From: a virus
Lineage: Duplodnaviria; Heunggongvirae; Uroviricota; Caudoviricetes
IMG/VR virus record: IMGVR_UViG_643692022_000007
DNA length: 38,874 bases
Reading direction: 5' to 3' (one strand)
The first letter of the stretch is position 1. The number at the start of each line of letters is the position of its first letter. Positions 26,378 through 38,667 of this stretch are shown in pieces. A program made the position numbers and the translations under genes. A model generated the notes under the pieces. It did no database searches. It saw only the letters and a program-made list of their open reading frames with translations, and was not told the origin of the DNA.

Positions 26378-27754
26378 TCATACGTCAGCCCCTTGTGCAT
26401 ATCGTCTGCCACGTGCACCGGGTGCATTTGATGTTGTGCAAATCTGTCTGGCTTCATCCTGGTCACATGCAACAAAGTGTCCGTTGCAGAACTGCTGGTA
26501 AACCGTACCAAGCGAGCCAAAACGGTTTTTCGTCACGATGATTTCAGCAAATGGCGCGGCGCTACTGTTCTCGTCATATACAGCTTCCCGATAGAGCATG
26601 ATGATTGAGTCTGCGTCCTGTTCAATGCTTCCTGAATCACGCAAATCTGCGTTTGTCGGGCGTTTGTTTGGTCGCTTCTCAACATCGCGCGAAAGCTGAC
26701 TTAGGGAGATAACAGGCGTTTTCAGGTCTTTCGCCATCGCCTTCAGGCTTCCGGAGATGTGAGCAATTGCGAGGTCGTTGCGATCTGCTTTCGGCTTCTC
26801 AATCAGGCCAAGATAATCCGCCATGATGAGTGACAGGTTTGGATTTTCCTGTTTATGCCGTTCTGCGATTGAGCGTATTTCTTCGACCGATAACCGCGAG
26901 GCATCGACTACCCATACATCCAAATCCGCAAGCTGACTCATGCCGTTAGCAACACGTGCCCAGCCCTCGTCATCCATCGATGCAGGATTTCGCAGTACGC
27001 TAACCGACATCCTCCCGGCGTTGGCAATGCTTCGTTCTGCAATCTGCAATGCGCTCATTTCCATCGAGAAAATCAACACTCCTCGCCGGACGTCAGAACC
27101 AGGAATAACGCGGCTTGCAACGCCTTCGGCAATCTTCAGCGCCAGCTCGGTTTTACCCATACCAGGACGAGCAGCGATTATCACCAGGTCTTCCGCGTTC
27201 ATCCCTCCGGTGATGGCATCAAGTTCTTCGATTCCGGTCTTCAGGGTATCGGACTCTTCTCCGTTCCTCAGACGCCTGTCAAGCGTGTCAGTGTAGTCAG
27301 TGATGATTTCACCCAACCGTACAGGTTTAACCTCGTCACGGGGCTTTCTGATGGCTGAGAGACGCTTTACAAGTTCATCCATCGCCTGACTCGATGCGTC
27401 GATGGTTCCGCTCTGAATTGGTTCACGCATTTCATCCATGATTTCCAGCACCAGACGGCGGTGATAGTTATCCGCGACCATTCCGGCATATCCCTTCAGG
27501 TTTGCGGCACTCGGGCAGTTTTTGCTGGTCATCAGGATTGACGTGAAATGCTCCTCTCCGCACGCCTCGGCAACCATCAGCGCGTCGATTAGGTTTCTGT
27601 TTCGCGCCTGCTTGCGGATAACCTCGAAGGCTTTCCGGTAGAGCGGAATTGAAAACGCTTCCGGCTCAAGCGTTGCCAGAACGTCACTGGCAGTTGGTGT
27701 TAATCCACCAATCAGCAGGCCACCGATAACGCTCGCTTCGATATCCTGTTTCAT
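26378..27754 (-). CDS. Replicative DNA helicase, DnaB family (P22 gene 12-like)
   Basis: 458 aa with a Walker A motif ([12 protein letters not shown]) and DnaB-like architecture; directly downstream of the O-like gene. Confidence 0.9.
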
Positions 27755-28698
27755 GCAATCCCCCTGTCTGCAAACTTCCCTTCACGAACTCCCGTTAACG
27801 AATCTTCTCTCAGCAGGTAATCAAAATCGGCCGTCCAGCCAGTGTCGTTGTCTCCGAAGTAAAACGGCTTGGCCTGATGTACAAACGCCCTGACATACGC
27901 TCTGAAACCGTCCACGTTTGGCGTTTTCAGTTGCGGGATGATTTTCTTCAGGCGGCGTTTGCGTTTCTCGTTGACCGCAACAGCGTGTGGCAGTCTGTCA
28001 CCGACTTCGGTGTTGTAGGCGTTCAGGAAGGATTCGTAGTCGATTCGTTCTGCCTTGCGACGTTCAGGTTTAACCTTCCCATCACCTCCCCCATTGGGGG
28101 GTAGGGGGGTATTATTTATATTCTTGTTAATACCTTCTTGTTCATGATGTGCGGTTGTTTGTGCGGCTTCATGTGCGCTTTCATGTGCGGCATGTACTCT
28201 GAAAGCCGCGCCATTGCTGGCTTCGTCATGTGCGTCATCATGTGCGGTTGTTTGTGCGGCTTCATGTGCGGGTGAATTGTTCATTTTTTGAGCGTATTCA
28301 TGGTAATTTGTGACGGTGATCACACGACCTTTTTGCTTCTCTCCATCAATGGAGATCATCCCCTCTTTCACAAAAACCTGAAGCATCCGCTCAACCTGAT
28401 CACGGCTTGCCGGCTTGCCATGCCTGTCGCATAACTGAAGACCTAAATCAGCTGCTGTCACAACCAGTTGACCGGGTTGCAGATGCCATTCATGACCTTT
28501 GAAATTCGCTTTGTATGGCTTTCTGGCGGCATTCAGGAGAAGGTTTTCCCACAGGGTGCGAAGATAAACATCTTTCGCCCATGACTGTTTCAGAATGCTC
28601 CGGTACAACGGAATGTAACCAGTTTTCTGGTTCTCCATCCTGTTGCTCCTGCGCTCGTGTGCGGCGCTGAAATCGTAGATTTTTGCTGTATTGCTCAT
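27751..28698 (-). CDS. Replication initiation protein (lambda O / P22 gene 18 analogue) containing the origin iterons
   Basis: 315 aa; N-terminus [10 protein letters not shown] resembles lambda O (MTNTAKILNF); internal repeated peptide [10 protein letters not shown] arises from DNA iterons within the gene. Confidence 0.8.
28140..28280. repeat. ori: Candidate replication origin: array of direct repeats (iterons) with adjacent G-run/AT-rich segment
   Basis: Roughly 36-bp unit catgatgtgcggttgtttgtgcggcttcatgtgcg present twice (about 28141 and 28239); six or more copies of tcatgtgcg-like core; followed at about 28083-28140 by gggggg runs and AT-rich sequence. Confidence 0.65.
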
Positions 28699-28700
28699 AA

Positions 28701-28973
28701 CTACCTGCCTTGACGAAAGACCTTAAGAACATCGTTAAACTGACTTACGGATATGTCTTCTTTGAGCAGCTTTTCCAGAAATGCGTTTGGAATGAACGTA
28801 TATCCCTCCTCTTTTGGTAGAGACGGGAGCAACGCCCTTGCCTCAGCCTTCAGAAGCTCAGTTCTGGCAACTTTCACAAAAGAGATTTGAGTTCTTTCAT
28901 CAATGGAACGAAGGAAGCGCAAACGCTTAACTTCTTTGTGTGTATCAGGTGGATTAAAGCCTTTGTTTCGCAT
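28701..28973 (-). CDS. Hypothetical protein between cII and the initiator gene
   Basis: About 90 aa from MRNKGFNPPDTHKEVKRLRFLRS..., GAGGT about 7 nt upstream of the ATG; no equivalent in lambda. Confidence 0.4.
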   Translation of the reverse strand: MRNKGFNPPDTHKEVKRLRFLRSIDERTQISFVKVARTELLKAEARALLPSLPKEEGYTFIPNAFLEKLLKEDISVSQFNDVLKVFRQGR

Positions 28974-29048
28974 ATAATTACCTCGTTGGATGTTGTTAAA
29001 ATTCCATTTGTATTTGATCAGAACGCTCGGTTGCCGCCGGGCGTTTTT
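28972..29048 (+). ncRNA. oop: OOP-like antisense RNA overlapping the 3' end of cII
   Basis: Plus-strand GATCAGAACGCTCGGTTGCCGCCGGGCGTTTTTTATTGGTGAG matches the remembered 3' end and terminator of lambda OOP RNA, antisense to cII. The 5' end is inferred. Confidence 0.6.
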
Positions 29049-29292
29049 TATTGGTGAGTCCATCAAGCGCATACTTAAAAGCCCTGCTAATCGGACTGAT
29101 GTCTGATGCCATTCCAAAAGCACACAGGACCGAAGCAATAAACCTCCAGTCCGTTCTGCTTATCTTCGATTCATGACAGCCAATCATCTTTGCCAGACCG
29201 CGCTGGGTAAGCGTTGACAGGTTGATGAGTAAATCTGTTTCTGCGCGATCAACGTCACGCTGTGATAGTTTGCTGTAACTTGTTTGTTCCAT
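28996..29292 (-). CDS. cII: CII transcriptional activator
   Basis: 98 aa; C-terminus TNKKRPAATERSDQIQMEF matches lambda CII almost exactly; N-terminal HTH region diverged. Confidence 0.85.
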   Translation of the reverse strand: MEQTSYSKLSQRDVDRAETDLLINLSTLTQRGLAKMIGCHESKISRTDWRFIASVLCAFGMASDISPISRAFKYALDGLTNKKRPAATERSDQIQMEF

Positions 29293-29398: not shown

Positions 29399-29626
29399 TT
29401 ATGCAGCCAGAAGGTTCTTTTTACTTATTTCAAGCATTTCGCTTGCTTGATATTTGCCACCAGAAATCTCTTCGATTTTTGAGGCGTATTTCGTTTTCCC
29501 AAAAAACTCAGTCTTAGGGAGGAAGCCGTTTTTGAGCCACTTATAGACAGCCCTTTCGCTAACTCCACAAGCCTTCGCAACTTCAGGTATGCCGACACCT
29601 TTAATCGGCTCATCAAGATTTTGCAT
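29399..29626 (-). CDS. cro: Cro-like repressor (HTH)
   Basis: First gene rightward of the divergent operator region; from MQNLDEPIKGVGIPEVAKACGVSERAVYKWLKNGFLPK... about 75 aa with a clear HTH. Confidence 0.7.
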   Translation of the reverse strand: MQNLDEPIKGVGIPEVAKACGVSERAVYKWLKNGFLPKTEFFGKTKYASKIEEISGGKYQASEMLEISKKNLLAA

Positions 29627-29704
29627 AGGAATGTCCTTTTTCGTACTTTCAGTACGCATTATGATTGAACTGAAAGTTTTTGCAAGTGCTTTAGTATCGT
29701 ACTC
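29627..29704. promoter_or_regulatory. Divergent OR / pR / pRM control region with repeated operator-like motifs
   Basis: 78-bp gap between divergent cro and cI. Contains palindrome CGTACTTTCAGTACG, a related inverted copy AACTGAAAGTT, and another CGTACT abutting the cI ATG. No SD before cI, consistent with a leaderless transcript. Confidence 0.65.
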
Positions 29705-30412
29705 ATGGTTCAGAATGAAAAAGTGCGCAAAGAATTCGCCCAGCGGCTAGCGCAAGCCTGTAAAGAAGCTGGTCTTGATGAACATGGTAGGGGAATGGCT
29801 ATAGCCCGTGCCCTTTCTCTTTCGTCCAAAGGCGTTAGCAAATGGTTTAATGCTGAGTCTTTACCGCGTCAGGAAAAAATGAATGCGCTTGCGAAATTTC
29901 TAAACGTTGATGTTGTTTGGCTTCAGCACGGCACTTCCTTAAATGGAGCGAATGATGAAGATACTCTTTCATTTGTTGGCAAATTAAAAAAAGGGTTAGT
30001 GCGCGTGGTTGGTGAGGCAATTCTTGGTGTTGATGGTGCCATCGAGATGACCGAAGAACGCGATGGGTGGCTCAAGATTTATAGCGATGATCCAGATGCC
30101 TTTGGCCTTCGTGTAAAAGGAGATAGCATGTGGCCTAGAATAAAATCAGGAGAATATGTACTCATTGAGCCTAACACCAAAGTATTCCCTGGTGATGAGG
30201 TGTTTGTCAGAACCATCGAAGGACACAACATGATCAAGATTCTTGGCTATGACAGAGATGGAGAATACCAATTTACAAGCATCAACCAGGACCACAGGCC
30301 AATAACGTTGCCTTATCATCAAGTAGCAAAAGTGGAGTATGTGGCTGGTATTCTGAAGCAATCTCGCCATCTGGATGACATCGAGGCAAGGGAATGGCTG
30401 AGAGATTCCTGA
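29705..30412 (+). CDS. cI: CI-type repressor (N-terminal HTH, C-terminal S24/LexA-like autopeptidase)
   Basis: 235 aa; HTH-like N-terminus; C-terminal domain with GDSM serine motif (VKGDSMWPRI) and downstream Lys, as in LexA/CI self-cleaving repressors. Confidence 0.9.
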   Translation: MVQNEKVRKEFAQRLAQACKEAGLDEHGRGMAIARALSLSSKGVSKWFNAESLPRQEKMNALAKFLNVDVVWLQHGTSLNGANDEDTLSFVGKLKKGLVRVVGEAILGVDGAIEMTEERDGWLKIYSDDPDAFGLRVKGDSMWPRIKSGEYVLIEPNTKVFPGDEVFVRTIEGHNMIKILGYDRDGEYQFTSINQDHRPITLPYHQVAKVEYVAGILKQSRHLDDIEAREWLRDS

Positions 30413-38484: not shown

Positions 38485-38652
38485 ATGCACTTCCGAGTCA
38501 CAGGTGAATGGAATGGAGAGCCATTCGACAGGGTTATCGAAGCAGAGAACATCAACGACTGCTATGACCACTGGATGATATGGGCGCAGATAGCACATGC
38601 AGACGTAACCAATATTCGAATTGAAGAACTGAAAGAACACCAAGCCGCCTGA
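38485..38652 (+). CDS. Hypothetical small protein (55 aa)
   Basis: Hand-translated MHFRVTGEWNGEPFDRVIEAENINDCYDHWMIWAQIAHADVTNIRIEELKEHQAA; GGAGATGA SD; stop lies inside the following terminator stem. Confidence 0.3.
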   Translation: MHFRVTGEWNGEPFDRVIEAENINDCYDHWMIWAQIAHADVTNIRIEELKEHQAA

Positions 38653-38667
38653 TGGCGGTTTCTTTTT
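38644..38667 (+). terminator. Rho-independent terminator upstream of the excisionase-like gene
   Basis: Hairpin CCGCC-tgat-GGCGG followed by TTTCTTTTTG. Confidence 0.7.

Follow-up and report, generated by a model that had tools for sequence, protein, structure and literature searches.

The window analyzed here, the whole 38,874-nt stretch of IMG/VR record IMGVR_UViG_643692022_000007, contains the early-right operon of a lambdoid phage, which is encoded on the minus strand (Table 1). The immunity region (cI/cro/cII) is of the 933W/phi24B type. With a length of ~39 kb and no tRNA genes, the window represents a nearly complete genome of a P22-like (Lederbergvirus-type) E. coli phage; outside the early-right region, it resembles P22-like E. 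coli podophages, e.g., APC_JM3.2 and IME10. A sequence-only reading of this DNA had stated that the gene downstream of cII is not lambda O, and this proved correct: cII is followed by a 90-aa ORF of the phrog_2519 family, whose counterpart in phage Kapi1 is annotated as hypothetical, with the genes for the O-like initiator and DnaB-like helicase beyond it. NCBIfam returned no match for cII, the 90-aa ORF or the O-like protein. An 801-base stretch around the cII junction is 98.6% identical to Stx2a phages matching E. coli O121 chromosomes and 96.5% identical, over 89% of its length, to Kapi1. A shorter stretch of 119 bases (28940..29058) is 100% identical to phage CUS-3.

Table 1. Features of the early region of the window (positions are those of the whole window)
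Feature	Position	Strand	Description
DnaB-like replicative helicase	26378..27754	−	Pfam DnaB_C E = 8e-78; P22 gene-12-type rather than lambda P
O-like replication initiator	27751..28698	−	Pfam Phage_rep_O E = 4e-15; phrog_345; internal iterons
90-aa ORF	28701..28973	−	phrog_2519 E = 2e-57, full length; pO-like promoter lies opposite its 5′ end
Candidate −35, TGGATT	28950..28955	+	3/6 matches, 17-bp spacer; weak, no better than chance
pO-like −10 hexamer, TATAAT	28973..28978	+	Overlaps the start codon of the 90-aa ORF (CAT, 28971..28973)
Predicted OOP-like antisense RNA	28985..29050	+	~66 nt; start from −10 geometry, 3′ end by analogy with lambda
cII	28996..29292	−	98 aa; Pfam Phage_CII E = 2e-34; phrog_191 E = 3e-38; predicted antisense target
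Predicted overlap of RNA and cII 3′ end	28996..29050	both	55 bp: stop codon, last 17 codons and one base of the 18th
Intrinsic terminator	29020..29049	+	Hairpin 29020..29047 (12 pairs, 4-nt loop); T-run 29044..29049 overlaps the 3′ arm; identical to the lambda OOP terminator
cro-like gene	29399..29659	−	
cI-like repressor	29705..30412	+	Peptidase_S24/HTH

The terminator opposite the 3′ end of cII

The plus strand opposite the end of cII had been read as carrying a hairpin and T-run copied from the lambda OOP terminator, and alignment to lambda (NC_001416) bore this out: 29018..29058 is an uninterrupted block in which all 41 bases are those of the lambda OOP terminator region, and the flanks diverge. 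As in lambda, the element lies on the strand antisense to the cII coding sequence. The hairpin and its T-run were also called by a terminator scan of the window. The hairpin folds at −17.2 kcal/mol (z = −4.0), a value equaled by 0 of 200 shuffled sequences, and the terminator sequence occurs once in the window, with 0 occurrences expected. Because of the uninterrupted identity to lambda, the strength and uniqueness of the hairpin and the match of the CII C-terminus described below, this lambda-type terminator cannot be a chance match. A second terminator-like hairpin, with nine pairs and a weak T tail, lies on the sense strand within cII (29127..29152, minus strand) and is probably a chance match.

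The same terminator sequence was found in the oop segment of a pSEVA cloning vector, which we take to be the widely used lambda t0 terminator; on that identification, termination by exactly this sequence is experimentally established in practice. When genome contigs (one genome per species) were scanned for the terminator, 28 matches were returned, mainly from unrelated taxa (Bradyrhizobium, Kitasatospora, Cuspidothrix, Ruminococcus and others). These matches were on short or tiny contigs, on ~48.5-kb low-coverage contigs and on one pSEVA plasmid. We rejected them as biology and read them as contamination of public assemblies with lambda control DNA or with vector (t0 terminator) DNA.

CII of the window is 43% identical to lambda CII overall, yet 19 of its last 20 residues are shared (LTNKKRPAATERS[D/E]QIQMEF), in agreement with the C-terminal match seen in the sequence-only reading. 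The C-terminus of CII is an FtsH/HflB degradation signal, and such a local rise in identity would fit a purely protein-level conservation, with the hairpin as a by-product of the function of the CII C-terminus. Several observations make this explanation extremely improbable. Specifically, cII codons 82–91 correspond exactly to the hairpin and T-run, and across 79 IMG/VR loci with this cII allele their synonymous sites were essentially invariant (synonymous diversity 0.005 compared with a mean of 0.078, the lowest of any 10-codon window), while the flanking C-terminal codons 92–99 vary synonymously. As a sign of selection this result is only suggestive, because codons 34–43 displayed equally low synonymous diversity and the sequences are related. 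A 99-aa cII variant bears more directly on the question. It was found at six IMG/VR loci (five distinct sequences) and carries a 3-nt insertion in the loop (CGGCAA to TGTGCAAGA), which changes the protein from RPAAT to RPVCKT and leaves both stem arms intact; the variant hairpin folds at −16 kcal/mol. Since the protein is altered and the stem is kept, this variant argues for selection on the hairpin itself, beyond the CII C-terminus. The vector segment, in which the identical sequence presumably acts as the lambda t0 terminator, also counts against a hairpin that is only a by-product.

At the other end of cII, on the strand opposite its 5′ end, TTGC-N6-TTGT (29270..29283, plus strand) fits the CII-binding consensus ttgy-N6-ttgy, the one used for pRE annotation in phage 434. 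Judged by this match, it is probably pRE, pointing to cro and cI.

The promoter region and the predicted RNA

In lambda, the −10 element of pO (CATAAT) opens with the O start codon in reverse complement and has TTGAGT 17 bp upstream. The annotated cII and O coordinates, the known 77-nt OOP RNA and the lambda sequence place the OOP start at the G of GTTGATAG. The window shares this geometry: TATAAT overlaps the first codon of the ORF that follows cII and lies 42 nt upstream of the hairpin. A ~90-aa ORF had been described as sitting where the OOP promoter would lie, and the hexamer indeed overlaps its start codon. Such an arrangement is not unusual, as lambda pO also lies within the 5′ end of its downstream gene, which is O there and the 90-aa ORF here. 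TATAAT occurs at three sites on the plus strand of the 38.9-kb window, and the chance of one falling within the ~40-nt zone admissible for a promoter is about 0.01. The element was placed by alignment to lambda instead of by a promoter scan; a consensus scan that required at least 4/6 matches in the −35 did not call pO.

The rest of the promoter departs from lambda, in which pO reads TGtCATAAT with TTGAGT as its −35. The TG one base upstream of CATAAT, presumably an extended −10, is kept as TGnCATAAT in the CATAAT classes of this junction and is absent upstream of TATAAT in the class to which the window belongs. The position of the −35 varies between classes of downstream gene. Owing to the poor −35 and the lack of a TG extension, promoter strength is uncertain and is the weakest link in the sequence argument. 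No LexA-type box (CTG-N10-CAG) was seen by eye over the promoter.

From this geometry, transcription would start at the G at 28985, the seventh base after TATAAT, with an uncertainty of ~2 nt in the 5′ end. By analogy with lambda, the 3′ end is placed after the U-run, at the position homologous to lambda 38599. The predicted RNA is shorter than that of lambda (~66 versus 77 nt) because the spacer between cII and the next gene is 22 nt instead of 32 nt. The span of 28972..29048 (77 nt) proposed earlier did not hold, as it merely imposed the length of the lambda RNA, and we put 28972 within the −10 element. The overlap with cII is the same length as that in lambda (55 nt; lambda 38599..38653), and 28996..29050 is the presumed region of RNA–RNA duplex.

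The 3′ 33 nt of the predicted RNA are identical to lambda, and the 41-nt block extends 8 nt past its 3′ end. The portion before these 33 nt follows the codon changes in cII, and the 5′ ~25 nt cannot be aligned with lambda beyond GTTG. Describing the whole element as a near-exact copy of lambda was thus an understatement for the 3′ part, which is exact, and an overstatement for the 5′ 30 nt, which differ. Stem-loop I at the 5′ end of lambda OOP (AGAUCCAG/CUGGAUUU) is absent: its 5′ arm AGAUCCAG is missing because of the shorter spacer, and folding of 28985..29051 gave only a 4-bp helix upstream of the terminator. This stem-loop is a trait of the lambda "long" class that not every reported OOP RNA shares; the P22 RNA, for example, is 63 nt.

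A search of Rfam, which has no OOP family, covered the whole window at gathering thresholds and 28850..29150 at E-values of up to 10, and returned only chance-level matches (MicC, His_leader and others), all far below thresholds. Two plus-strand ORFs across the locus, 28990..29106 (38 aa) and 28887..29057 (56 aa), were dismissed as mechanical; they are antisense to cII, lack a ribosome-binding site and cross the terminator. In the searched literature, we found no transcript evidence for the short 5′ variant in CUS-3, Kapi1, phi24B or the O121 Stx2a phages.

In lambda, base pairing of OOP with the cII-O transcript forms a duplex that is cleaved by RNase III; the cII mRNA decays, the CII level drops and lytic growth is favored (Krinke and Wulff 1987; Krinke et al. 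1991, as summarized in PMC12197685, PMC5488031 and PMC7067206). We consider it likely that the locus in the window is the oop gene of this phage, encoding a ~66-nt, self-terminating plus-strand RNA that is made from a pO-type promoter and is antisense to cII. In such a scheme, the promoter at TATAAT would transcribe the RNA, which would stop at the hairpin and U-run. Over its 3′ 55 nt, the RNA would match the end of cII in the rightward early (pR) transcript with full complementarity; this complementarity is automatic, since the RNA is cis-encoded. By analogy with lambda, pairing with the cII mRNA would yield a duplex that is cut by RNase III, and the resulting decay of cII mRNA would lower CII and bias the phage towards lytic growth. 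Here, we infer promoter firing, the exact 5′ end and dependence on RNase III.

The replication genes downstream of the junction

The 90-aa ORF bears traces of an O-type gene. Its C-terminal 35 residues show a weak similarity to the N-terminal domain of Phage_rep_O, in the first helix region (Pfam E = 0.047, below threshold), and pairwise BLASTP matched the ORF with residues 26–59 of lambda O (E = 5e-4). By these resemblances, it may be an O-like gene of which module exchange left a stub. At the start of the O-like gene itself lies a second, degenerate copy of lambda pO (28672..28707, plus strand; GAAATCGTAGATTTTTGCTGTATTGCTCATAAC compared with GAAGTTGAGTATTTTTGCTGTATTTGTCATAAT in lambda, ~30/39 or ~77% identical), in which the −10 is spoiled (CATAAC). 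The O-like protein begins with MSNTAKI, compared with MTNTAKI in lambda O. Together, the degenerate copy and the lambda-O-like start suggest that the 90-aa ORF, with a junction block of its own, was inserted between oop and the ancestral O-type start.

With a lambda-pO-like sequence at this position, the terminator could instead mainly end a longer RNA of ~350 nt that starts upstream, e.g., at the degenerate copy (28672..28701), and runs antisense to both the 90-aa ORF and cII; any plus-strand transcript arriving from the left would end at 29049. We regard this as very unlikely, as the copy lacks the critical last T of the −10 as well as the TG, its −35 is degraded, and the promoter scan called no promoter-like site there. 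The promoter at the cII junction remains the preferred source of the RNA.

Within the O-like gene, iteron-like direct repeats with ~12-nt periodicity (GCACATGA core) extend over 28141..28283 and are followed by an AT-rich stretch at ~28105..28140. From this arrangement, the two are likely the replication origin, which would lie ~700 bp from the pO-like promoter, compared with ~350 bp in lambda.

Conservation of the junction across lambdoid phages

An exact-match scan of IMG/VR for the terminator yielded 119–121 loci; an independent set of 79 loci was picked by the CII protein (≥95% identical) and not by the terminator. The terminator loci had at least five sequence-distinct 5′ blocks, namely one lambda-like "long" block, two "short" blocks, of which one is that of the window, and two rarer ones. 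Their downstream genes were of at least seven unrelated kinds: besides lambda O, there were ORFs of 47, 48, 53 and 86/90 aa and two longer proteins (233 and 266 aa). Among the 79 loci chosen by CII, lambda O was downstream at ~40, the 90-aa ORF at 14 and the 47-aa ORF at 10, with other genes at the rest, and the −10 was kept in all. Overall, CATAAT or TATAAT lay over the start codon at every junction (~200 loci in total). Part of this conservation may come from shared ancestry or from translation signals, since the short junction block also holds the Shine-Dalgarno sequence and the first two to three codons. The short 5′ block of the window is common in CUS-3/Kapi1-like phages, the O121 Stx2a phages and phi24B, and a scan of one-genome-per-species genome contigs for it gave no match.

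Outside lambda, OOP RNAs have been reported in P22-like phages. The OOP RNA of BTP1 was seen by transcriptomics/RNA-seq (PMC7067206), the 63-nt oop RNA of P22 by RNA-seq (PMC13397905), and OOP-like sequences have been reported in Stx phages (PMC5488031). P22 and BTP1 share with the window the Lederbergvirus background, the O-like gene with a DnaB-like helicase, a small ORF that separates the cII-like gene from the initiator, and, in P22, a short RNA. They differ in having a C1-type cII gene, another terminator sequence and a lambda-like "long" 5′ block (TGnCATAAT...GATTGATCCAGT) (PMC13397905). The window thus shows the reverse combination, with a lambda-type terminator and a different, short 5′ block. 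The small orf of P22-type phages is missing from lambda, and in a lambda/P22 hybrid the match to lambda ends at about −19 within pO (Hayes et al. 2012, PMC3349717), so the −35 regions differ between replication modules. The survey of Hayes et al. 2012 (PMC3349717; see also Clark et al. 2001, "sequence 5") described the same gene order as in the window, with oop/pO on a conserved mosaic joint and with variable −35 and replication genes. That survey was seeded with a 33-bp "long" pO/5′-oop block at ≥90% identity (PMC3349717), which the short block of the window, GCATATAATTACCTCGTTGGATG, would escape.

Treatment of the region as a conserved mosaic joint (Hayes 2012, PMC3349717; Clark 2001) opens another explanation, in which the element is an inherited terminator or recombination linker, i.e., a "boundary sequence" for crossover between the immunity and replication modules and/or a part of cII, with no working promoter and little or no RNA. 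The weak −35 without a TG extension and the loss of the lambda 5′ stem-loop are compatible with it, as is the reassortment of haplotypes on either side of the hairpin: Kapi1, for example, combines lambda-type codons 92–96 with the short 5′ block. We nevertheless consider it unlikely. The −10 is perfect, correctly positioned and kept in every context examined, and a linker role leaves both the consensus TATAAT and the kept stem arms of the loop-insertion variant unexplained. Moreover, the linker and oop roles are not mutually exclusive.

An oop gene at this locus is the reading that we retain. The sequence-only reading had proposed that antisense control of cII persists here alongside a different replication module; this stands in that the sequence has all the parts of an OOP-type cis-antisense gene, namely the terminator, the overlap with cII and the −10, from which transcription is predicted. 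Retention of oop across replication modules is correct, yet it is established knowledge. As a feature of lambda-like phages, the locus is ordinary and has been described before; this copy is unannotated and has a shorter 5′ end, and what sets it apart is the short 5′ block outside the reach of the 33-bp probe. The closest public records (CUS-3, Kapi1 in GenBank and the O121 Stx2a phages) carry no oop annotation; with no OOP family in Rfam either, annotation pipelines miss oop.

It is doubtful that the short 5′ block (TATAAT without TG, no stem-loop I, ~66 nt) defines a functionally distinct class of OOP. If it did, the unstructured, A/U-rich 5′ end could change pairing kinetics, stability or promoter regulation relative to lambda OOP, and phages with the short class could have another lysis–lysogeny bias and, as a consequence, another level of Stx induction.

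In RNA-seq of Kapi1 lysogens, cII was reported as "highly expressed" during lysogeny (PMC12922286). We set this signal aside as evidence for OOP, as the strand handling of the read counting is not stated there (PMC12922286). If the counting was not strand-aware, part of the cII signal could be an OOP-like RNA from a constitutive antisense promoter.

The finding has little importance beyond annotation, where recognizing oop aids the reading of stranded RNA-seq over cII in lysogens. For the lambdoid phages, module exchange keeps the −10, transcription start and terminator of oop on a conserved joint, and everything upstream of about −19 is swapped.
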